Origin: an uncultured Nitrososphaerota archaeon
GTDB lineage: Archaea; Thermoproteota; Nitrososphaeria; Nitrososphaerales; Nitrosopumilaceae
Assembly (NCBI GenBank): GCA_963701075.1
Contig: OY969559.1
Location: 928,001 to 992,000, forward strand
DNA length: 64,000 nt
Reading direction: 5' to 3'
Positions 51,623-64,000 of this stretch are shown here, one piece after another. Position 1 is the stretch's first letter; each line of letters starts with the position of its first letter. The notes below the pieces were generated by a model. It did no database searches, was not told where the DNA came from, and saw only the letters and a list, made by a program, of their open reading frames with translations. The position numbers were made by a program, and so were the translations under genes.

Positions 51623-51696
51623 GGGATCGTGGTCTAGCTTGGTATGATGCGGGTTTTGGGTACCTGAGGTCGTCGGTTCAAATCCGGCCGATCCCA
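51623..51696 (+). tRNA. tRNA-Pro(TGG), intronless
   Basis: Acceptor GGGATCG/CGATCCC, anticodon arm CGGGT-TTTGGGT-ACCTG, T-arm GTCGG-TTCAAAT-CCGGC. Confidence 0.93.
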
Positions 51697-51906: not shown

Positions 51907-53151
51907 ATGAGTGAATTCCAGAGAATAGCAAACAATGACATACATAATTCTGTTAGAGACGTTGAGCGATATAAAAATATCTTACAGAAATTCAAGAACG
52001 GTTCTGACTGTATAAAATTTTTGGATGCGTTACTTTTGTCAGGCAGAAGCTGGATTCGAATTGCAACTTATGCTTATTCATGTCAGAAGATTCTTCAGCT
52101 CAAAGACGATAAACCAATAATCTCATGGACTCGCGAGGATTGCGAAGAGATTGTAAAAAAGTTTGTAATTGCAAACATATCAAACGCTACAAAGGAGGGC
52201 CACTTGCGTACCCTCAAACGTTTGGTACACAGGTGCAAGACAAAGAAACTGATTCAAAAGGGTAGGGAAGACTATTGCGAAGAAGTTGCCTGGATTACGC
52301 CCGGATCTTTCTACGACAAATACGAAAAAATCCAGTCAAAAGACTTGATAAAAGACAATGAAATTCTTGCCATGATAAACGCTGTCAAGAAAATGGGAGG
52401 AAAATATGTAAAGAGAAACATTCTTGTCTTGTTTCTTCTACTTGATGGAAGCTTCAGGCCTGCAGAGCTTCTCAATATCACCATTGGTGGCATCGAATTT
52501 GGTACTGATTTTGTGAGGGTTCATACAACTGGCAAGACAGGCCCAAAAAGGCTCACCTTGGTAACAAGCTTCGTACCAATGAAAGAATGGATACAGGAGC
52601 ACCCCGATGCTGAAAATCCAGAAGCATATCTTCTATGGGAAGACAAGGAGGAAGGCAGGATGTCATACTGGCAGTTATGGCGTCTTGTAAAACGTTCGGC
52701 TCAAAAGGCTGGTATTAAGAAAAGAATCTGGCTCTACCTTTTCAGGCATACCAGTATTACAGAACATGTTAAGCGTCTTGGTCGTGTAGCTGCGGTTTAT
52801 GGAAATTGGAGTCCACGAAGTAAAATGTTGCAAAAGTACACGCACCTGGCAGATTCCGACCAGGAGGATGCTATCCTGAAGCTGCATGGCCTAAAAAAAG
52901 AGGACAACACTGATTCTATATTATTTGCAAAGATGTGTCCCCAATGCCACAAGGGAAACAGTGCAGATAAATCTCATTGCAGCAATTGTGGTACAATTCT
53001 TTCCAAGAAACTAGCCCAGATTCGCGAATCTAGAAATATGACTGATGTACTGAGGTTTGAAAGAAAATTCTCTTCAGAAATAAAGAGTCTACGGAAAACT
53101 ATAGAAGAACAACAAAAAATGTTTGAAGTCTTGCTAAAAAGTAAAAATTAA
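51907..53151 (+). CDS. tyrosine recombinase/integrase with C-terminal Zn ribbon
   Basis: FRPAEL, GKTG, LFRH, GNW, KYTHL catalytic pattern; CPQC...CSNCG. Confidence 0.92.
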   Translation: MSEFQRIANNDIHNSVRDVERYKNILQKFKNGSDCIKFLDALLLSGRSWIRIATYAYSCQKILQLKDDKPIISWTREDCEEIVKKFVIANISNATKEGHLRTLKRLVHRCKTKKLIQKGREDYCEEVAWITPGSFYDKYEKIQSKDLIKDNEILAMINAVKKMGGKYVKRNILVLFLLLDGSFRPAELLNITIGGIEFGTDFVRVHTTGKTGPKRLTLVTSFVPMKEWIQEHPDAENPEAYLLWEDKEEGRMSYWQLWRLVKRSAQKAGIKKRIWLYLFRHTSITEHVKRLGRVAAVYGNWSPRSKMLQKYTHLADSDQEDAILKLHGLKKEDNTDSILFAKMCPQCHKGNSADKSHCSNCGTILSKKLAQIRESRNMTDVLRFERKFSSEIKSLRKTIEEQQKMFEVLLKSKN

Positions 53152-53354: not shown

Positions 53355-53392
53355 TAGTACACCCCCGTGTACTTAGTACACCCACATGTACT
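53355..53392. repeat. tandem pair of 19-bp palindromes
   Basis: tagtacacccccgtgtact + tagtacacccacatgtact. Confidence 0.85.
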
Positions 53393-53490: not shown

Positions 53491-53527
53491 TCCTTGTAAA
53501 GTTTACAAGTTGTAAACTTTACAAGGA
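53491..53527. repeat. perfect 18-bp inverted repeat, each arm itself palindromic
   Basis: tccttgtaaagtttacaa-g-ttgtaaactttacaagga. Confidence 0.92.
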
Positions 53528-53545
53528 ATAGGCATATTGCTTATA

Positions 53546-53587
53546 ATGTAGACATTGTAGACAATATTTGTCGACATTGTCTACAAT
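53546..53587 (+). repeat. 42-bp four-box palindromic site, left copy (overlaps ATPase start)
   Basis: atgtagacattgtagacaatatttgtcgacattgtctacaat. Confidence 0.92.
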
Positions 53588-54764
53588 GAACAATCCATTC
53601 AACCCAGGCTCGGGAGTGCCTCCTCCTTATCTTGCTGGAAGGCAAGAGCATTTGGCAAGGTTTGAACAAATGTTAAAGAGCATTAATGACGGCCATGTTG
53701 AGAATCTGATAGTATATGGTTTACGAGGGACTGGAAAAACGGTCCTCATGGAAGAATTTAGTAAGTTGTGCATAAGTCACAGGTTCATTCCTATCAAGAG
53801 AGCACAGTTTAGTAAGAAATACTGTGACCCAGATGAGTTTACCAAGGCATTAAAATATGACATAAAGACTGCAATAGGTACATTTTCCAGGGTCAAGCGA
53901 ATAAAAGACAAGTTTACTTCAATTCTCTCTTATGTTAGACCAAAACATGTGGGAATCCCAGATGTTTTCTATTATGAACCGTCTTACAGTTCAGCTTCCG
54001 GCGTACCATTTGAGGATCATCTGAAGGAATATCTTACCAAGAATTGGAAAATCTTTGAAAACAGTAATTACAAAGGGGTTATCTTTCTCTTTGATGAATT
54101 TCATTCAATCTATGACGTACCATACAAAAAGTGGTTTGTTCTTTCTGATTTTATGGGGGTACTAAATGAAGTACAAAAGACTGGCTGTAGATATTTTGCA
54201 GTTTTTTCTGGCCTGCCAAACCTTCATCTCAATATTAAAGAAGCAAGATCGTATTCTGAACGCATGTACAAATCATTGGAAGTTGGAAATCTAAGTGAAG
54301 AAGAGGCAACATCTGCAATTACAAATCCGTTAGTTAAAAGTGAGTACAAGTTTGAAAAATCTCTTGTTGAAAAGATTGTAGTCGAAACTGGTCAGTATCC
54401 ATATTTTATTCAATTCTATTGTAAAGAGTTAATCAATATGAGTGATAAGAAGAAAATTTCTCTAAGTGAATACGAGAGAATCAGTCCTATGATTACAAAA
54501 CAACTCGATGATGACTTTTTTGATCCCAGACTGGAGATATTGAGTGATGATGAACAAAAAGTGATTGTTTCCATGGCACGTGCAACTGATACTGACATAC
54601 CGTTTGATTTTATCAAGAAAAAGACAAGAATGGAACGAACTACATTATCAAAATATATGAAAAGGCTCGAGGAGAAGGGTCTGGTTTATAACTACAAACG
54701 TGGAATTTACCGTTTCTCTGTCCCATTGCTAAAGCAGTATCTTGTACGAAAGTCGACAATGTAG
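53568..54764 (+). CDS. AAA/STAND-like P-loop ATPase with C-terminal winged helix
   Basis: NPFNPGSGVPPPYLAGR, GLRGTGKT, FLFDEFH, TGQYPYFIQ, LSKYMKRLEEKGLV...GIYRF. Confidence 0.9.
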   Translation: MSTLSTMNNPFNPGSGVPPPYLAGRQEHLARFEQMLKSINDGHVENLIVYGLRGTGKTVLMEEFSKLCISHRFIPIKRAQFSKKYCDPDEFTKALKYDIKTAIGTFSRVKRIKDKFTSILSYVRPKHVGIPDVFYYEPSYSSASGVPFEDHLKEYLTKNWKIFENSNYKGVIFLFDEFHSIYDVPYKKWFVLSDFMGVLNEVQKTGCRYFAVFSGLPNLHLNIKEARSYSERMYKSLEVGNLSEEEATSAITNPLVKSEYKFEKSLVEKIVVETGQYPYFIQFYCKELINMSDKKKISLSEYERISPMITKQLDDDFFDPRLEILSDDEQKVIVSMARATDTDIPFDFIKKKTRMERTTLSKYMKRLEEKGLVYNYKRGIYRFSVPLLKQYLVRKSTM

Positions 54765-54791
54765 ACATTATTTGTCTACATCGTCTACAAT
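54750..54791 (+). repeat. 42-bp four-box palindromic site, right copy (overlaps ATPase stop)
   Basis: aagtcgacaatgtagacattatttgtctacatcgtctacaat; 36/42 identical to the left copy in direct orientation. Confidence 0.92.
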
Positions 54792-54929
54792 TTGGCGCTT
54801 GTTATAGGAATTGGTACGGATAGTGCGCCAAACTATTTGATAAAGTAAAATCTGGAATCTGGACTTTATAACAAATGAGTTCCTTAAATGGCACATGATA
54901 TCTTGTAGATCATATATGCATTTTGTATC

Positions 54930-55018: not shown

Positions 55019-55505
55019 GGATTCAAACTTGATACTTTCATGTCCATCATCCCTAGGGTCGTTATAGAACCTGGATTCTATCCCGGAATAGAGGCGGCTG
55101 GCAAAAACATCCTGCATTATAGGACCAAATTCTGATCCTATAACGCAAGATGAAGTCAACACAAGCTCGCTAATGCAAGTTTACTTACTTTATAAGGTAA
55201 ATCTGGAATCAGAACTTTATAACAAATGGAATTACTGATCGTCTGATTCCACGGATCAGGGAAGCTGCATCTTAAGATCAAAGTTTCAAGCGACTTTACA
55301 TTCGTAATGGGGACGAAAATCTAGTCATATCGACTCCTTTACTTGATGATGAGGGCGTCATTATAGCTAAAAAAATTTTTAGCTGAGTTGTTATACCATA
55401 TCTCAAACCGGGAAGTATATGGCCTGTAACGAACTAGTCATAAGTTGATGGTCTGCCTTCTGGAATGCTCTTTGGTAATAATATTATCACCATTTTTTAA
55501 AAGAC

Positions 55506-57970: not shown

Positions 57971-59533
57971 CTATTTTGATTTAAGACGTAACAGAATTAG
58001 ATTAGTTTCCATTCTGCCATATTTTGTAGGATATTTGTCCTTCAGTTCTGTGATTAAAAGAGTAGCAGCAACGTTTGCTCCACCTTCACCATAATAATTA
58101 TCAAGATTTTCAATAATTTGTTTATCAAACACCTTACTTAGATCCTGAAAAAAGATCTCTTTAGATACGTTCATTTTTTGCGCCTGCATGTTTCGTTGAA
58201 GTAGATTAACTAATCTAAACAGAACACTAATTCCTCTGTTATGACCAAAATATGTTCCTGCCTTAAATGAATAATCTGGCATGTATTGCTGCATGTAAGT
58301 AAAAATCTCCTTCAACTTTTTGTTAGTAGTAGAAACTGTTTCTTGTACCAGATTGTTGCTAATCATTGCAGAAACAAGCGTAGTTAGAGTAATTTTGTCA
58401 CCTTTTTGTTCATCTGCCATTCCAAAATAGATCCTATTTTTGAAAAATGAATGATTTAGCTCGTCTGCGACTCCGACTGATATTTTTTCTTTAAACTCTC
58501 TTGTTCCTTCCTTCCAATCTAAATCAGCCTTTAGCAGTAGTATTAGGTTACCGTCTATTCTTTGTTGTTTTGAATTAATATCAACAAATGTCTTGATCTC
58601 CTTTTTTCTATCATAATCTTGTAATGCAATAACTGGCATAGAGTACATCTTCTGAATTTCCGATGATACTACTGAAAAACCCAAAAGCCTGTGCTGTCCG
58701 TCAATTATTCTACAAGTATTGTAACTTAATGGAAATTGTATTTTTACAACTTTTGGGCAATCCTCTGGTGGGAGTATTTTATTCGTCATATCAGGCACAT
58801 TTATCAAAATAGAATTTGGAAAGGAAAGTCCTTCTCCTTTTTTGATATTATTAGATATGTTGATCATTCTGTGTTCTTTCAAGGTCCTCTGATAACCCAC
58901 GTCTTTGGTTCTTCGTCTTGAAACATAACATGTGTGTAGTAAATTAAAGACTCTTTCTACAAAACAAAATACTGGTATGTCACCAATATAATATTGAATT
59001 GCATCAATCTGTTTTGATGTTTTCTCATCTTCAAATTCCAACCAATCAAGCAAGTCATTTTTAGCCCAAAGTCCAATTTTCTTGTAACAGTTTAAAAAAT
59101 ATTCATAATCATCTAGATATGCAACTTTGTTTAGTTTACCACTTTGTGTCATACGCTGAACTTCATGAGATGGATTTTCTGGAGTTTTAGTAGATAGATC
59201 AAAATATACTCTAATTACTTTTCTTGGTCTTAATTGGTATAGTTTGTTGACAATTGCCAAATTGTCACGATCTTCCCATTTAATAAAAAACGCATTTTTC
59301 TTATTACTAGAGTGTTTATCCTTACTCACCTCTACAAGAAACAAATAATCTTTGAAGGTGAAAATTAGATCAATTTCACCTATCCTTTGAGTTGATGAAT
59401 TTGTAATTATGGAATTTGCATCTACAAAAGTAAATCCTAATTTGAAAAGTAGATCTGCTACTTCACGCTCATTTTTATTTTCAATTTTAGCGATCTTTTG
59501 CTCTGTTTCTAAAATTTGGTCTTTTTCCATCAT
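57971..59533 (-). CDS. DGQHR (DndB/ParB-like) domain protein with N-terminal PD-(D/E)XK-like domain
   Basis: GYQR, FPNSILI, IIDGQHRLLG, FVDINSKQ; N-terminal E...GEIDLIF...LVEV. Confidence 0.88.
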   Translation of the reverse strand: MMEKDQILETEQKIAKIENKNEREVADLLFKLGFTFVDANSIITNSSTQRIGEIDLIFTFKDYLFLVEVSKDKHSSNKKNAFFIKWEDRDNLAIVNKLYQLRPRKVIRVYFDLSTKTPENPSHEVQRMTQSGKLNKVAYLDDYEYFLNCYKKIGLWAKNDLLDWLEFEDEKTSKQIDAIQYYIGDIPVFCFVERVFNLLHTCYVSRRRTKDVGYQRTLKEHRMINISNNIKKGEGLSFPNSILINVPDMTNKILPPEDCPKVVKIQFPLSYNTCRIIDGQHRLLGFSVVSSEIQKMYSMPVIALQDYDRKKEIKTFVDINSKQQRIDGNLILLLKADLDWKEGTREFKEKISVGVADELNHSFFKNRIYFGMADEQKGDKITLTTLVSAMISNNLVQETVSTTNKKLKEIFTYMQQYMPDYSFKAGTYFGHNRGISVLFRLVNLLQRNMQAQKMNVSKEIFFQDLSKVFDKQIIENLDNYYGEGGANVAATLLITELKDKYPTKYGRMETNLILLRLKSK

Positions 59534-59615
59534 TTTTGTTATAATTAATCAGTTATTACAAATTGTGTTTTTTAAAACCGAATAATGTCTATAAAGACCA
59601 AATCCTTCTCGTTTT

Positions 59616-61106
59616 ATGTTGTCTGATAAAGTAACTTTCGAATTTCTCAAGAATCATCTCTGGAAAGCAGCTGATATTCTAAGAGGTTCTTTAGACGCAG
59701 GTGAATATCGTCAGCCAGTCATGACTCTGCTTTTTCTAAAAAGACTAAATGACACATTTGAAGAAAATGCAGAAAAATTGCTCAAAGCAGGAAAGAGTCA
59801 GAAAGAAGCATATGAAAATCCTGCAAGACATAATTTTTTTATTCCAAAACAAGCACGCTGGAAAATATTATCAGAAACAACTGAAAAGGTTGGCGAAACA
59901 ATAGATCATGTCTGCAAATTAATAGAAAGAGAAAATCCAGATCTAGATGGTGTGATGACAAATACAAAGTATAGCGATAGAAGAAAATATCCTGACGATA
60001 AATTACGACAATTAATTTCTCACTTTAATTATCCATCATTAAAAAATTCTGATTTAGAAAAAGAAGACATTTTTGGTGATGCATATGAATATCTTTTAGC
60101 AGAATTTGCTGATGAAACAAAGAAGAAAGGTGGTGAGTTCTTTACTCCAAGAGAAATTGTTCGTCTTTTAGTTAGTTTAGTAGAGCCAAAAGAAGGTATG
60201 AAGATCTGTGATCCTACTTGTGGTTCTGGTGGAATGTTGATTGAATCAAGAAAATATGTGGAGCGTTCTGGTGGCAATCCACGAAATTTGATTTTAGAAG
60301 GGCAGGAAAGCAACTATGGAAATTTAGCCATGTGCAAGATGAACATGGTACTGCATGATATTATTGATTTTAAGATAGAATATGGAGATGTGTTATCAAA
60401 TCCAAAACTAGTAGAAGGTGGAAGGCTCAAAACCTACGACCGAGTTCTTGCTAATTTTCCTTTTAGTATGAATTGGGATAGTAAAATCGCTGCAAAAGAC
60501 TCATACAATAGATTCCGATTTGGTGTGCCGCCTGCAAAAGATAAGGCTGATTTTGCCTTTATTCAACACATGTTTTCTTGCTTAAATGGAAAAGGACAGG
60601 CTGCCATAATTTGTTCTCAGGGAGTATTGTTTAGGGGTGGTGAAGAGGTAAAGATTCGTGAGGGAATGATAAAAGAAGATGTAATAGAAGGAATTGTTGC
60701 ACTACCTTCCAATCTGTTTTATGGTACCGGAATACCTGCGTGTGTTTTGATATTAGATAGAAATAAACCTGCAAACCGTAAAAATAAAATAATTTTCATT
60801 CATGGCGCAAAAGACTATCAAGAGGGCAAAACTCGTAATACATTACGAGATTCTGATATAAAGAAAATTGTATCTGCTTTTAAGAATTACAAAGACATTG
60901 ACGGATATTGCCACATTGCGAATCTTGAAGAACTGCAAGAAAATGAGTTTAATCTTAATGTGCCAAGATATGTTGACATTTCAGAACATGAAGAAGAGAT
61001 TGATATTCAAAAAACAATTGATGAATTAAAAAAACTAGAGAAGGAAAAACAAGAACTTGAAGTTAGAGTAATTTCTAATCTAAAAGAATTGGGTTTTAAG
61101 GTTTAG
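59616..61106 (+). CDS. hsdM: type I R-M methyltransferase subunit
   Basis: LWKAADILRG, GEFFTP, DPTCGSGG, ANFPF (motif IV variant of NPPF), LFYGTGIP. Confidence 0.96.
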   Translation: MLSDKVTFEFLKNHLWKAADILRGSLDAGEYRQPVMTLLFLKRLNDTFEENAEKLLKAGKSQKEAYENPARHNFFIPKQARWKILSETTEKVGETIDHVCKLIERENPDLDGVMTNTKYSDRRKYPDDKLRQLISHFNYPSLKNSDLEKEDIFGDAYEYLLAEFADETKKKGGEFFTPREIVRLLVSLVEPKEGMKICDPTCGSGGMLIESRKYVERSGGNPRNLILEGQESNYGNLAMCKMNMVLHDIIDFKIEYGDVLSNPKLVEGGRLKTYDRVLANFPFSMNWDSKIAAKDSYNRFRFGVPPAKDKADFAFIQHMFSCLNGKGQAAIICSQGVLFRGGEEVKIREGMIKEDVIEGIVALPSNLFYGTGIPACVLILDRNKPANRKNKIIFIHGAKDYQEGKTRNTLRDSDIKKIVSAFKNYKDIDGYCHIANLEELQENEFNLNVPRYVDISEHEEEIDIQKTIDELKKLEKEKQELEVRVISNLKELGFKV

Positions 61107-61109
61107 AAA

Positions 61110-62402
61110 ATGCAAATTGAAAAACAAAGACAAGGTTACAAACTAATTCAGATTCAATCTAGAAGATATGAAGAGATTCCAAATGATTGGAATGTTGTTA
61201 CATTAAAAAACTTGATAACTGACATAAAATCTGGTTTTGCATCTGGTGCGCGTGATGAAAATGGAGTAATTCAACTAAGAATGAATAACATTACTGATTA
61301 TGGAACACTAGATTTTAGTAAAATTCTGAAAGTTCCAATACCTGAGGATATTGATCAGTATGATCTGAAAAAAGACGATGTGCTTTTCAATAATACTAAC
61401 AGTCTTGATCTAATAGGAAAAACCACGATTGTTGATAACCTCATAGATCATACCTTCTCAAATCACATAACAAGAATAAGGACAGACAAGACAAAACTTG
61501 TTCCTTATTTCTTGATGTTGCTATTCTTAAAATACAAAGAACAAGCAATATTCCGTTCCATATGTAATACTCATGTGGGTCAATCTGGCATAAGCAAGAA
61601 TGAATTACTTAGGCTCAAAATCATCTGCCCACCATTAATAGAACAACAAAAAATTGCTTCAATTCTTTCATATGTTGATTATCTAATCAATCAAACACAA
61701 AAAATCGTTGAACAAACTCAGAGACTCAAGAAAGGAATATTGGAAAAGTTATTAACAAAAGGAATTGGACACACAAGATTCAATAAAACAAAACTTGGTG
61801 AAATTCCAGAAGAATGGAAAATTGAAAAACTTGAAAACATTTGTAAAATAACAGATACTCCGCATTATACATCGCCTTTGTTTAAAGACGGAATACCAGT
61901 TATTACTACCGCCGATTGTGATGAAAGTGGTAGAATAGATTATACACATGTAAATTTTACAACTAGAGAAGAATATCAAAAAAGACGGGAAACAATAAAT
62001 CCAGAAAAAGATGATGTGTTGTTTACTAGAGAAGCTCCATTAGGTATTGCAGTTGTAGTTGATAGAGACGAAATTGCGGTTGGTCAGAGAATTATTTTAT
62101 TAAAATTAGATAAAAAATTGATCAACAATATGTTCCTTATAACATTTCTAAATTCAGCAAGAGGTATTTATCAATCTAATTCTTTTGCCATAAAAACCAC
62201 AGTTGAACGAGTTAACATATCGGACATAAAGAAATTTGTAATTCCACTTCCTTCAATTTTAGAACAACAAAAAATTTCCAATATTTTATCAAATGTTGAT
62301 TTACAAATTCAAAAAGAACAAGAATACAAATCCAATCTTGAAACTCTCAAAAAAGGATTAATGCAAAAACTTCTCACAGGACAAATCAGGGTAAAAGTTT
62401 GA
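61110..62402 (+). CDS. hsdS: type I R-M specificity subunit
   Basis: Two TRDs with IP..W and P.L.EQQKI..IL...LKKG...KLLT conserved repeats. Confidence 0.95.
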   Translation: MQIEKQRQGYKLIQIQSRRYEEIPNDWNVVTLKNLITDIKSGFASGARDENGVIQLRMNNITDYGTLDFSKILKVPIPEDIDQYDLKKDDVLFNNTNSLDLIGKTTIVDNLIDHTFSNHITRIRTDKTKLVPYFLMLLFLKYKEQAIFRSICNTHVGQSGISKNELLRLKIICPPLIEQQKIASILSYVDYLINQTQKIVEQTQRLKKGILEKLLTKGIGHTRFNKTKLGEIPEEWKIEKLENICKITDTPHYTSPLFKDGIPVITTADCDESGRIDYTHVNFTTREEYQKRRETINPEKDDVLFTREAPLGIAVVVDRDEIAVGQRIILLKLDKKLINNMFLITFLNSARGIYQSNSFAIKTTVERVNISDIKKFVIPLPSILEQQKISNILSNVDLQIQKEQEYKSNLETLKKGLMQKLLTGQIRVKV

Positions 62403-64000
62403 ACTTTGACGTAGCAGATAACGACGAAGGAAACAAGTCAGAGCGACCAGCCTTAGAGCAACTATACGCTATGGGATATGATTATCTAAGCCAAAATGAC
62501 CTAAACAAAACACGAAGAGATTACCGTGAAGTTTTGCTTTATGACAGGCTAGAAAAGGCAATCAGAAAACTCAATCCCGAATTTGATGATGACGGTGTAA
62601 GAGACGCACTCACACAAATCAGTGAATTATCATATCCGTATACACTAGATCCAATGGATACAAACGAAAAGATTAGAGCAAAACTTGTTGAACTATCAAG
62701 ATCAAATGGATTAGAACCAATAATTGTAACTCAAAACTTTGGAGAAGGTCCTGAAGAAAAAACTGTAAAACTATTCGATTTTGATAATCCTGAAAATAAT
62801 GACTTTCTAGCAACTAACCAATTTCAGCTAGATGGTTTTAAAAATCCAATATATCCAGACATTGTAATTTTTGTAAATGGTATACCATTAGTTATAATAG
62901 AATGTAAATCGCCTTCAATTCCAGATCCTATAGGAGAAGCAATAGAAAGAAAAAACTTTGCACATTATCAAACAAGGGGATTAGGATTTGAAAGATTGCT
63001 TTTCTATAATCACTTTCTTGTTGCAACATGTGGAACACTTGCAAGACACGGAACTCTTGGTTCTAGCATAAATCATTATGCAAGATGGTCAGAAGCATAT
63101 CCGCTAACTATAGAAGAGATTGAAAAAATATGTAAAAGAAAACCACGAGAGCAAGAAATTCTTATTGCAGGCATGTTATCAAAGTCACATCTTTTAGATC
63201 TACTCAAAAACTATGTCCTATACGAAGATGTAAACAACAAAAAAATAAAAAAGATTGCAAAACACCAACAGTATAGGGTAGTTACAAAAGCAGTCAACAG
63301 ATTACATCTTGAAGGAAACATTGCAGACAAAGGTGGAGTTATCTGGCACACTCAGGGATCAGGAAAATCACTTTCAATGCTCTGGTTTGCAACGCAATTA
63401 ATGTTCAAGTTCAAAAACCCAGCCATAATTATCGTTACAGACAGAAAGCAACTAGACAGGCAGATTCATGACACCTTTAGAGCATGTGGCTTTGCAGAAC
63501 CTGAAAAAGCCAAGAGTTCAAGACATTTGGCAGAACTATTCCAAAATGCAAAAGGTAAGACCATAATGACAACCATTCAAAAGTTTGCTACGGAAGGTGC
63601 TCAAATCCACACAGATGAGAAGGCAATCGTACTAGTAGATGAGGCACATCGAACTCAATACAAGTTTAATGCGGAAGATATGCGAGCAGCCATTCCAAAT
63701 GGCGTATTTTTTGCATTTTCAGGTACTCCAATTGACAAGAAAAACAAGAGCACTTACAGAGTCTTTGGTCCAATGCTTGACAAGTATTCCTTTGAAGAAT
63801 CTAAAGCAGATGGTGCAACTTTGTCAATATTATACGAAGGTCGTATGCCTCATCTTTTTGTTGAAGGAGAAGATACAATAGACAAAATATTTGAAAGAGT
63901 ATTTTCTGATCTTGACAAAGAAACTAAAGCCAAGCTAAAATCACAATATGTAACAAAAGGAAAAATCGCAGAAGCACCTGCAAGAATTAGAAAGATATGC
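62399..64000 (+). CDS. hsdR: type I R-M restriction subunit (truncated by window end)
   Basis: TTG start overlapping the hsdS stop; PDIVIFVNGIPLVIIECK, WHTQGSGKS, DEAHR, FSGTP in one frame. Confidence 0.95.
   Translation, partial: MNFDVADNDEGNKSERPALEQLYAMGYDYLSQNDLNKTRRDYREVLLYDRLEKAIRKLNPEFDDDGVRDALTQISELSYPYTLDPMDTNEKIRAKLVELSRSNGLEPIIVTQNFGEGPEEKTVKLFDFDNPENNDFLATNQFQLDGFKNPIYPDIVIFVNGIPLVIIECKSPSIPDPIGEAIERKNFAHYQTRGLGFERLLFYNHFLVATCGTLARHGTLGSSINHYARWSEAYPLTIEEIEKICKRKPREQEILIAGMLSKSHLLDLLKNYVLYEDVNNKKIKKIAKHQQYRVVTKAVNRLHLEGNIADKGGVIWHTQGSGKSLSMLWFATQLMFKFKNPAIIIVTDRKQLDRQIHDTFRACGFAEPEKAKSSRHLAELFQNAKGKTIMTTIQKFATEGAQIHTDEKAIVLVDEAHRTQYKFNAEDMRAAIPNGVFFAFSGTPIDKKNKSTYRVFGPMLDKYSFEESKADGATLSILYEGRMPHLFVEGEDTIDKIFERVFSDLDKETKAKLKSQYVTKGKIAEAPARIRKIC

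Follow-up and report, generated by a model that had tools for sequence, protein, structure and literature searches.

Several described systems place a single gene between repeated DNA sites. Integron cassettes are about the size of one open reading frame (ORF), have an imperfect palindrome at the stop codon, and adjoin a tyrosine recombinase gene. Insertion sequences and morons are single genes that form self-contained transcription units, and insertion sequences are bounded by terminal inverted repeats. In the P1 and F plasmids the rep genes are flanked by iterons. Here we describe, from an ammonia-oxidizing archaeon, a gene that encodes an ATPase with a C-terminal winged helix-turn-helix (wHTH) domain and that carries the same four-box palindrome at both of its ends. 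The gene lies in a stretch of 64,000 nucleotides (nts), hereafter the window, which corresponds to G000:C1:928001-992000 of a genome of 1.916 Mb with 38.6% G+C. From the comparisons given below, it looks like a self-recognizing, cassette-like gene module rather than an integron-type cassette.

The P1 and F replicons and the bipartite replication origin (oriC) of Helicobacter pylori resemble the locus in that an initiator gene lies between clusters of its own short binding boxes. In these replicons the upstream cluster overlaps the promoter, which gives autoregulation, and the bound clusters pair and loop out the gene. The window protein differs in that it matches no Rep or DnaA family, no unwinding element accompanies its sites, and its genomic contexts are accessory. 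In the H. pylori origin, dnaA is reported to lie between two DnaA-box clusters (PMC3479198). A second relevant case is Orf8 of pleolipovirus SNJ2, a virus-borne Orc1/Cdc6 homolog adjoining an integrase; PMC10123103 reports Orf8 as a transcription switch, acting on transcription and not on replication, with palindromic operators in its circuit. Both proteins combine an AAA+ ATPase with a winged helix and are encoded close to an integrase in an integrated archaeal element. However, Orf8 is a true Orc1/Cdc6 homolog in a three-gene module, whereas the window protein fails the Orc1/Cdc6 model and stands alone, with its own sites at both ends and no conserved partner genes. Our literature search found no description of self-flanked ATPase-wHTH genes, but its coverage was limited, and the terms PF01637 and DUF234 mostly matched unrelated DUF234x.

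A repeat search found 43-nt sites at 53545-53587 and 54749-54791 that are 37/43 (86%) identical and 1204 bp apart, which bears out the two-site, four-box arrangement reported in a preliminary description of this DNA. Both sites are palindromic: the arms of the 5′ site (53547-53564 and 53568-53585) are 89% complementary and those of the 3′ site (54752-54767 and 54773-54788) are 88% complementary. The 5′ site proper (53547-53585) is made of the boxes TGTAGACA, TGTAGACA, a center, TGTCGACA, and TGTCTACA, which start at 53547, 53556, 53569, and 53578. The 3′ site (54751-54789) is made of AGTCGACA, TGTAGACA, a center, TGTCTACA, and CGTCTACA, with the TAG stop codon (54762-54764) inside its second box. 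All eight boxes contain GTMKAC, as had been noted, and in both sites the box starts are spaced 9/13/9. A TATA-like element, TTATAA (53541-53546, forward strand), abuts the 5′ site, which fills the 40 bp between this element and the likely start codon. TTATAA is the outermost element kept in the upstream region of the paralog described below, and it probably belongs to the promoter.

Both TTATAA and the ORF of 53568-54764 (1197 nt with the stop codon) were as the preliminary description had them. The start of the 392-amino-acid (aa) ORF on the forward strand is likely the ATG at 53586 (53586-54764), two codons ahead of a family-conserved NPF motif, so the 5′ site probably abuts the start rather than encoding it. 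Of the earlier statement that the sites encode both ends of the ORF, the part about the stop codon stands, and the part about the start probably does not. The TTG at 53568 remains an alternative start; the paralog has CCA where the window has the ATG and may use the TTG inside the site.

The sites are exclusive to this gene and its relatives. The pattern GTNNAC-N3-GTNNAC-N7-GTNNAC-N3-GTNNAC occurs four times in the genome, always at an end of the window gene or of the paralog. In the window the motif TGTMKACA occurs 9 times versus 3.8 ± 2.0 expected, and 6 of the 9 are within the two sites. Across 63 genomes of the genus, the 9/13/9 pattern was found only at the ends of the window gene, the paralog, and one ortholog, and a 10/14/10 pattern was found only at the genes of a second clade (clade 2) or their remnants; a reversed-pattern control gave no matches in any of the 63. 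Elsewhere in the window genome, five direct GGTAGAC boxes, spaced 10 to 14 bp (G000:C1:1648476-1648527; L347 2176-2228), overlap the start of a small minus-strand ORF that is ribbon-helix-helix-like. These were not counted as an ATPase target, as they are probably that gene's own operator with a coincidentally equal core.

The paralog (C1:1228794-1229987) is 80% identical to the window gene, in protein and DNA alike, and has sites at both ends; the two copies align over window positions 53541-54789 only. An ortholog in G011 (94% identical) keeps both GTAGAC sites. In these clade 1 genes the GTAGAC boxes have a 9-bp spacing. Clade 2 (40 to 41% protein identity; G039, G058, G355, G034, and a partial copy in G016) also has a four-box palindrome at each end, with GTAAAC/GTTTAC boxes spaced 10/14/10. 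The two sites of one clade-2 cassette are closer to each other than to the orthologous site of another species, and where G039 differs from G058, the 5′ and 3′ sites are changed at the same box positions. Because the sites match best within a cassette, both ends appear to follow the same specificity. In these alignments, box sequence and spacing co-vary with the protein lineage, the two ends changing in concert.

The orientation of the sites is not conserved. The two ends match better inverted than direct in G058 (39/40 versus 30/40) and G039 (37/40 versus 27/40), and the inverted reading is also the better one in G011. For the window copy both readings are possible because the site is itself palindromic (direct 32/37, inverted 29/37). 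The preliminary description had stressed a shared "tatt" center in direct orientation, which is true of the window copy but not of clade 2; with clade 2 inverted, the window nearly equal, and G011 inverted, an asymmetric center in direct repeat, which the excision model depends on, is not a conserved property. (The unpublished genomes G011, G034, and G019 supply the ortholog with 94% identity, a single clade-2 copy, a single remnant, and a single example of the CTGTAAAG boxes discussed below. The main argument rests on G000, G039, G058, G355, G016, G006, G036, G033, G014, G042, G053, G004, G005, G003, G025, G038, and G046.)

At an E value of ≤1e-40, homologs occur in 22 of 401 genomes of the class, often as several copies or broken. 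In other Nitrosopumilaceae, direct iterons of the AAGTNNACA type with a 9-bp period lie directly after the stop codon or overlap it; their variable positions are lineage dependent, and they are organized as higher-order tandem repeats. Fifteen further Nitrosopumilaceae loci have their own boxes of this type, and recognition-helix variants of the winged helix track the box types, an association seen among related loci, which are not independent samples. At 18 of 30 loci the 320 bp around and after the stop codon contain four or more copies of the commonest 7-mer, compared with 2 of 30 inside the gene and 2 of 25 far upstream. In one array GTAGGCAAA is present in 57 copies; in another, a unit of 38 bp is repeated 9.1 times; a third, which begins inside the end of the ORF, has 5.7 repeats of a 48-bp unit at 100% identity. 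The long higher-order 9-bp arrays, with up to 57 copies and units of up to ∼110 bp, lie directly after the homologous gene at L092, L090, L089, L097, and L106; some of these have 100% copy identity and some include the last codons of the ORF.

Genome and metagenome collections yielded 160 loci at 25 to 41% identity, almost all bacterial, of which 151 had usable flanks. These were scanned with a strict four-box detector (two direct and two inverted copies of a 6-mer, symmetrically spaced), which replaced a crude upstream 6-mer test. Of the 151 distant loci (25 to 36% identity), 13 have a four-box palindrome between −38 and −71, versus 1.4 expected; when at most one mismatch was allowed, an upstream palindrome was found in 7 of 151 versus 0.19 expected. 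In a clade with TGATAAG/CTTATCA boxes, the boxes are in the promoter and one box is built around the TGA stop codon. An ungapped test for 5′/3′ matches at 80 distant loci gave a background level, but it was underpowered for boxes of 7 to 8 nt. The idea that the flanks of homologs would carry palindromes co-varying with the wHTH domain is borne out within the genus and, as an enrichment of upstream four-box sites, at the distant loci; at the latter it fails for the 3′ site, which is not universal.

As judged from where homology begins and ends, the site-ORF-site unit clearly behaves as a cassette in evolution. It is found in at least four contexts, and homology ends at the outer edges of the sites. 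The clade-2 units of G058, G355, and G034 are 84 to 86% identical over 1248 to 1252 bp, exactly from site to site, but the 1.5 kb of flank on each side is unrelated; synteny is kept between G058 and G039 (82% over 3.4 kb). The suggestion in the preliminary description that this is a cassette holds in this evolutionary sense, with edges at the sites and with a sister lineage that is inverted in place in two genomes.

Remnants are frequent: seven remnant loci were found, all of which keep ORF stubs; none is the clean single-site scar expected from site-by-site recombination. G036 and G033 keep the 5′ site and 25 to 38 nt of the ORF (in G036 an integrase is 77 bp upstream), G014 keeps the 5′ site and 145 nt, G034 keeps the 5′ site and 75 nt, and G006 keeps the last ∼25 nt and the 3′ site. 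In G042 and G016 both sites and a 3′ ORF stub are present and the interior has been replaced by two other genes. Because all remnants keep 25 to 145 nt of the ORF, the breakpoints are not in the sites. At the last two loci (L320, G042:C317; L321, G016:C203), what is left of the cassette is a degenerate 5′ site, the final ∼60 nt of the ATPase gene, and the 3′ site; one of the replacement genes has an N-terminal wHTH domain and the other is HEPN-like by eye.

Within the 63 genus genomes no other cargo lies between intact sites, and the patterns flank only the window ATPase family or its remnants. No junctions skipping the unit were found in the contigs of four runs, a search of contigs only and of low power, and contig breaks near the 3′ site were uninformative. 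There is no target-site duplication at the window copy or the paralog, and beyond these two copies, 80% identical, the genome has no near-identical multiples. A ∼1.25-kb insert after tRNA-Pro in other genomes was considered as a cassette and rejected, since it is an EamA-like membrane gene.

Self-flanking of this kind, by unrelated palindromes, is also seen in ATPase-wHTH genes of the family PF01637 (ATPase_2). The integrase context of G006 matches the window at 95% identity as far as 53393 and is then followed by such a gene (PF01637, 64.8 bits; MCM_C-like winged helix, 50.3 bits). Tandem palindromes of a type that we call P1 lie directly before its ATG and overlap its TAG stop codon; the window has one solo P1, equivalently placed (53355-53392, AGTACAC-N5-GTGTACT twice; repeat search, family D4). 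A frameshifted PF01637-wHTH gene in the window genome (C1:6229-5107) lies between ACTAGT palindromes and adjoins the C terminus of an integrase; after it come half-site remnants of a clade-2 3′ site and a clade-1 5′ site. The surrounding region (G000:C1:4300-7700) is a second integrase-proximal mosaic that also holds palindromes like P3 and P5, which are described below. Flanks could be compared at 22 PF01637 places in the genus. At 10 of these, belonging to four lineages, the 5′ and 3′ flanks share a repeat clearly above their own internal control, and so do the flanks of the frameshifted copy; at the other 12 they do not. In a 384-aa lineage (L323, L340, L327, and L341; G047, G016, G004, and G042), the tandem palindromes GCATATATTCT...AGAATATATGC lie directly upstream of the ATG. 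No 3′ counterpart accompanies them, so not every lineage of the genus shows the two-sided design.

The window protein, with Walker A (GLRGTGKT) and Walker B (FLFDEF) motifs, falls in Pfam AAA_16 (PF13191; 40.2 bits versus a cutoff of 32.6, residues 16 to 98) and has weak matches to MarR/HTH_36 at residues 319 to 370. Its AlphaFold2 model (predicted local distance difference test score, 84.7) has an AAA+ base, a lid, and a C-terminal winged helix, which is the architecture of Orc1/Cdc6. By Foldseek, the nearest solved folds are 2fna (SSO1545) and 2qen (PAB2304), both archaeal PF01637 ATPases, 2qby_A (Orc1/Cdc6 on origin DNA), and origin recognition complex (ORC) subunits, followed by STAND proteins; the top matches, which include 2qby_A, 2v1u_A, 1fnn_A, and ORC subunits, have E values of ∼1e-9 to 1e-8 and template modeling (TM) scores of 0.4 to 0.56. 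An hhalign comparison with a PF01637 member gave full-length distant homology (probability 92%, E value 6e-7). PF01637 proteins are thus like the window protein in fold, in three-domain architecture, in full-length profile, and, for several genus members, in being self-flanked by palindromes, but the window protein scores only 19.9 bits against their cutoff of 33.2 and belongs to AAA_16. Pfam, NCBIfam, PADLOC, and PHROGs gave only AAA+ and wHTH matches, with no nuclease, transposase, or recombinase domain, and no family was above threshold in PADLOC, NCBIfam, or a PDB sequence search. PADLOC-DB 2.0 had no convincing defense model (best E value, 7e-4, to SoFic and in the wHTH region only). The best database relative is an "AAA family ATPase" of a Nitrosotalea sp.

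The anatomy of the unit, its conservation, the co-variation of protein and site, the cassette-like boundaries, and the variety of contexts are all observed. The reading that we prefer, with a probability of about 0.55, is that the gene is a compact, self-regulated ATPase-wHTH module, in which the four-box palindromes would be the cognate sites of the encoded winged helix and the gene would be looped or insulated. The best-supported step, on comparative grounds, is that the boxes are the recognition sites of this winged helix, because of their exclusivity, their co-variation with the protein, the concerted change of the two ends, their helical periodicity, and the presence of the same four-box plan at distant promoters. 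Of the two alternatives raised in the preliminary description, excision or insertion at the sites versus binding of the wHTH domain to both ends, the second is the better supported, because boxes and spacing co-vary with the protein, in concert at both ends of a cassette, and because the 5′ site is placed downstream of the TATA-like element and ahead of the start.

In such a module the protein, with its ORC/Cdc6-like fold of AAA+ ATPase, lid, and winged helix, would bind the 5′ site between the TATA-like element and the start and repress its own promoter. Autorepression is suggested by the position of the 5′ site and by comparison with archaeal repressors whose binding sites lie between TATA box and start. 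The protein would also bind the matching 3′ site overlapping the stop codon, the partner of the 5′ operator, and the gene would be looped or insulated when the two bound complexes associate with each other in an ATP-dependent manner. This pairing of 5′ and 3′ sites is suggested by the ORC/STAND type of oligomerizing ATPase together with the precedents of P1, F, and the bipartite oriC. Promoter-operator, ORF, and 3′ site would make up a compact, self-regulated, context-independent module of ∼1.25 kb, residing in integrase-proximal, defense, or accessory islands and gained, lost, replaced, or inverted as a unit at its palindromic ends. Binding by the gene's own product, autorepression, looping, and cellular output are what we infer from the comparisons.

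Several points weigh against a self-regulated module. The support is comparative throughout, and it comes from relatives, which are not independent of one another. A 3′ site is not found in all members: among the distant loci only the TGATAAG clade has stop-codon boxes, and four-box sites at the stop codon show no enrichment (2/151 versus 1.4 expected). The upstream test for a 6-mer present at least 3 times gave 0.42 versus 0.37 in control windows, which was not significant. Arrays of up to 57 iterons exceed the needs of autoregulation, and autoregulation leaves the protein's role in the cell or the element unexplained. In addition, well-preserved sites persist beside deleted genes in genomes that have no intact copy, which is unexpected of pure operators unless the losses were recent. 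Finally, a PF01637 lineage with 84-bp inverted repeats, 98 to 99% identical across species, hints at an active mobility that the module leaves unassigned.

This last lineage bears on what we consider an unlikely explanation, although the likeliest of the rivals: that the locus is an autonomous or ATPase-dependent mobile element, with the ATPase-wHTH protein recognizing the ends and a synaptic complex driving, or recruiting enzymes for, insertion, inversion, and spread. As far as sequence comparison can tell, the lineage (392 aa) is the strongest sign of mobility. Its terminal inverted repeats have the first 50 nt identical and contain CTGTAAAG boxes in their inner part. In seven species genomes the 1341-bp unit is 98.2 to 98.5% identical (ORF, 98.2 to 99.3%), whereas the immediate flanks of G014 and G004 are only 75 to 90% identical. 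It occupies one slot, between P5 and P3 palindromes, in one orientation in G014, G003, G038, G025, and G046 and reversed in G004 and G005, and both junctions carry ATAT. The window holds the unoccupied slot: P3 (54929-54966, TATGCAAAATTGCATA twice; repeat search, D5 and I7), 19 bp, and then P5 (54983-55020, TTACGCC-N4-GGCGTAA twice; identified by slot comparison with other genomes). P3 forms one side of the occupied slot in G014 and G004. Because loose contig ends at 54983 in runs X3 and X5 read into the end of the inverted repeat, occupied alleles exist in those metagenomes.

Also consistent with a mobile element are the clade-2 sites, which are inverted repeats at 39/40, the occurrence of units in different contexts with boundaries at the site edges, and insertion between housekeeping genes (trpE/trpD and thiC/thiD). 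However, the ORF has no nuclease, transposase, or recombinase domain, and genomes do not hold multiple near-identical copies, the two here being 80% identical. No target-site duplication marks the window cassette, and ATAT is a palindrome in its own right and may be part of the repeat. Homologous recombination is enough to invert a segment between perfect inverted repeats of 50 nt. The flanks of G003, G038, G025, and G046 are also 94 to 99% identical, so the whole island may travel. The locus is like insertion sequences and morons in being a repeat-bounded single gene found between unrelated genes, in operons, and in prophage accessory slots; it is unlike insertion sequences in lacking a transposase domain, bursts of identical copies, and, at the window copy, an evident target duplication. 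We are equally cautious about the broader proposal, which we think improbable, that ORC-like ATPase-wHTH genes are a previously unrecognized class of single-gene mobile elements, without a conventional transposase, in which the ATPase would recognize the ends by its winged helix and favor insertion, inversion, or horizontal spread of the gene that encodes it, into specific palindrome-framed slots in archaeal integrated elements and also into bacterial prophages and plasmids.

That the unit is a maintenance module, with the ATPase as an ORC-like replication initiator or a centromere-binding protein and the boxes and arrays as iterons, an origin, or a centromere, seems to us quite unlikely. The fold is nearest to Orc1/Cdc6 and ORC subunits, the N terminus has weak sequence similarity to Orc1/Cdc6, the gene lies between its own sites with higher-order iteron arrays directly after it, it adjoins the integrase of an integrated element, the G006 island has a ParM-like gene (by eye), and the bipartite oriC offers a precedent (PMC3479198). 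But the Orc1/Cdc6 model TIGR02928 scores 22.2 bits versus a cutoff of 181.3 and over the N-terminal 48 residues only, two canonical Orc1/Cdc6 genes are present elsewhere in the genome, and no AT-rich unwinding element was seen beside the four-box sites. Matches occur in 89 plasmid records, and in all three of the copies inspected, the gene is in an accessory or defense region of a large plasmid with its own, separate replicon type. In viral contigs, where 65 loci were found and 18 examined, the neighbors include CI-like repressors and Sie-like, tail-fiber, and lysis genes, so that the positions are moron-like. Many other copies lie between housekeeping genes with no other element genes.

No neighbor is conserved among the homolog loci inspected. 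In Nitrosotalea the neighbors are ApeA-HEPN and SIR2 (at the paralog), a divergent TIR gene, ParE/Zot, or integrases; outside Nitrosotalea they are HEPN, AbiEii, transposases, or housekeeping genes (thiC/thiD, trpE/trpD). By analogy, this genomic company and the SNJ2 precedent (PMC10123103) favor a role in conflict, defense, or element regulation over one in replication. The ParM-like ORF mentioned above (L231, G006:C78:1-830; actin/ParM-like, N terminus ...GLDIGTAFVK..., by eye only) lies downstream of the G006 island and hints that this island is derived from a plasmid-like element.

Still more doubtful is an integron-like cassette, in which the neighboring tyrosine integrase would recombine the two sites, excise a 1204-bp circle, and reinsert it at a cognate site; of the mobility models this integrase/attC-like one is the least supported. 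Its attraction is the company that the unit keeps. A tyrosine recombinase gene with a C-terminal zinc ribbon lies directly upstream in the window (51907-53151, forward strand; Pfam Phage_integrase, 47 bits versus a cutoff of 27.1), integrases are also found upstream of the G036 remnant and of the frameshifted copy, as well as in G006 and G053, and downstream of the integrase, cassettes and solo palindromes form a mosaic. As in integron cassettes, the units are ORF sized and a palindrome overlaps the stop codon. Unlike integron cassettes, they have lineage-specific sites that co-vary with the DNA-binding domain of the cargo, which leaves no common site for one integrase, and they carry only one cargo family; the only exception to the absence of other cargo, in G042 and G016, is an interior replacement that keeps the ATPase 3′ stub. 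In clade 2 the sites are inverted and in clade 1 their orientation is ambiguous, no clean empty site was seen among the remnant loci, and the remnants in G036, G033, G014, G034, G006, and G042/G016 retain their 25 to 145 nt of ORF. The paralog and most homologs have no integrase nearby, the contigs of the four runs gave no junctions (at low power), and the window integrase, at 68.5 bits, is far below the cutoff of 220 of the NCBIfam XerA/integron-integrase model and so is not of the integron type. The excision by a tyrosine recombinase between direct sites that was originally proposed is not supported, given the unconserved orientation, the ORF stubs, and the lineage-specific sites. Least probable of all is that the palindromes act at the RNA level, as transcript hairpins (a 5′ leader structure and a 3′ terminator or stabilizer) and not as protein-binding DNA: both sites can form RNA structures (−18.3 and −17.6 kcal/mol; z-scores, −4.6 and −4.4), but their equivalents in other genera, direct repeats of 9 bp, are unable to make hairpins, transcription would cover only boxes 3 and 4 of the 5′ site if the TATA position is a guide, and the 9- to 10-bp box periodicity and co-variation with the wHTH domain point to recognition of duplex DNA.

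Around the self-regulated module that we favor, the window has the makings of a variable island. Upstream are a methionine aminopeptidase gene, tRNA-Pro (TGG; 51623-51696, forward strand; ARAGORN), which forms the edge of the island, and the integrase; 3′ of the ATPase-wHTH gene are small ORFs, a DGQHR/DndB-like gene, and a type I restriction-modification system. These neighbors place the gene in a variable, integrase-proximal island. No repeat of at least 11 nt of the 3′ half of tRNA-Pro, as expected for attR, was found within the next 150 kb. Four different tandem palindromes (P1, P2, P3, and P5) surround the window cassette. P2 is also solo (53491-53527, CTTGTAAAnTTTACAAG twice, 18/18 complementary; I3); it recurs as a solo site in G006, G053, and G011 and is similar to the CTGTAAAG boxes of the 392-aa PF01637 lineage. 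P2 and P3 do not occur in the genome outside the window.

Other features of the island were noted. A 35-nt direct repeat (54843-54877 and 55194-55228, 89% identical) ends in CTTTATAACAAATG and resembles a duplicated promoter or start region; similar copies are present in G011 and G006. An inverted repeat at 55108-55152, with 20-nt arms and a 5-nt loop followed by a minus-strand T run, is terminator-like. The region 57971-64000 holds the DGQHR/DndB-like gene (TIGR03187, 81 bits), which has an N-terminal UPF0102-like region and adjoins hsdM, hsdS, and hsdR of the restriction-modification system, and because of these genes we regard the region as a defense island.

Archaea, soil bacteria, plasmids, and prophages very commonly encode AAA_16 and PF01637 "ATP-binding proteins" that have a winged helix at the C terminus, and no function has been assigned to any of them; the window protein alone gave 592 matches at an E value of ≤1e-10. 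If the module is as we read it, each gene carries a presumptive recognition sequence at its own ends, which would supply a DNA motif for every member. The lineages would then be a natural set of orthogonal protein/operator pairs and possible tools. The integrase-proximal hot spots of Nitrosotalea appear to be mosaics of such cassettes, solo sites, and stubs. Should the ATPase itself prove to drive the movement of the cassettes, they would be a new type of mobile element.

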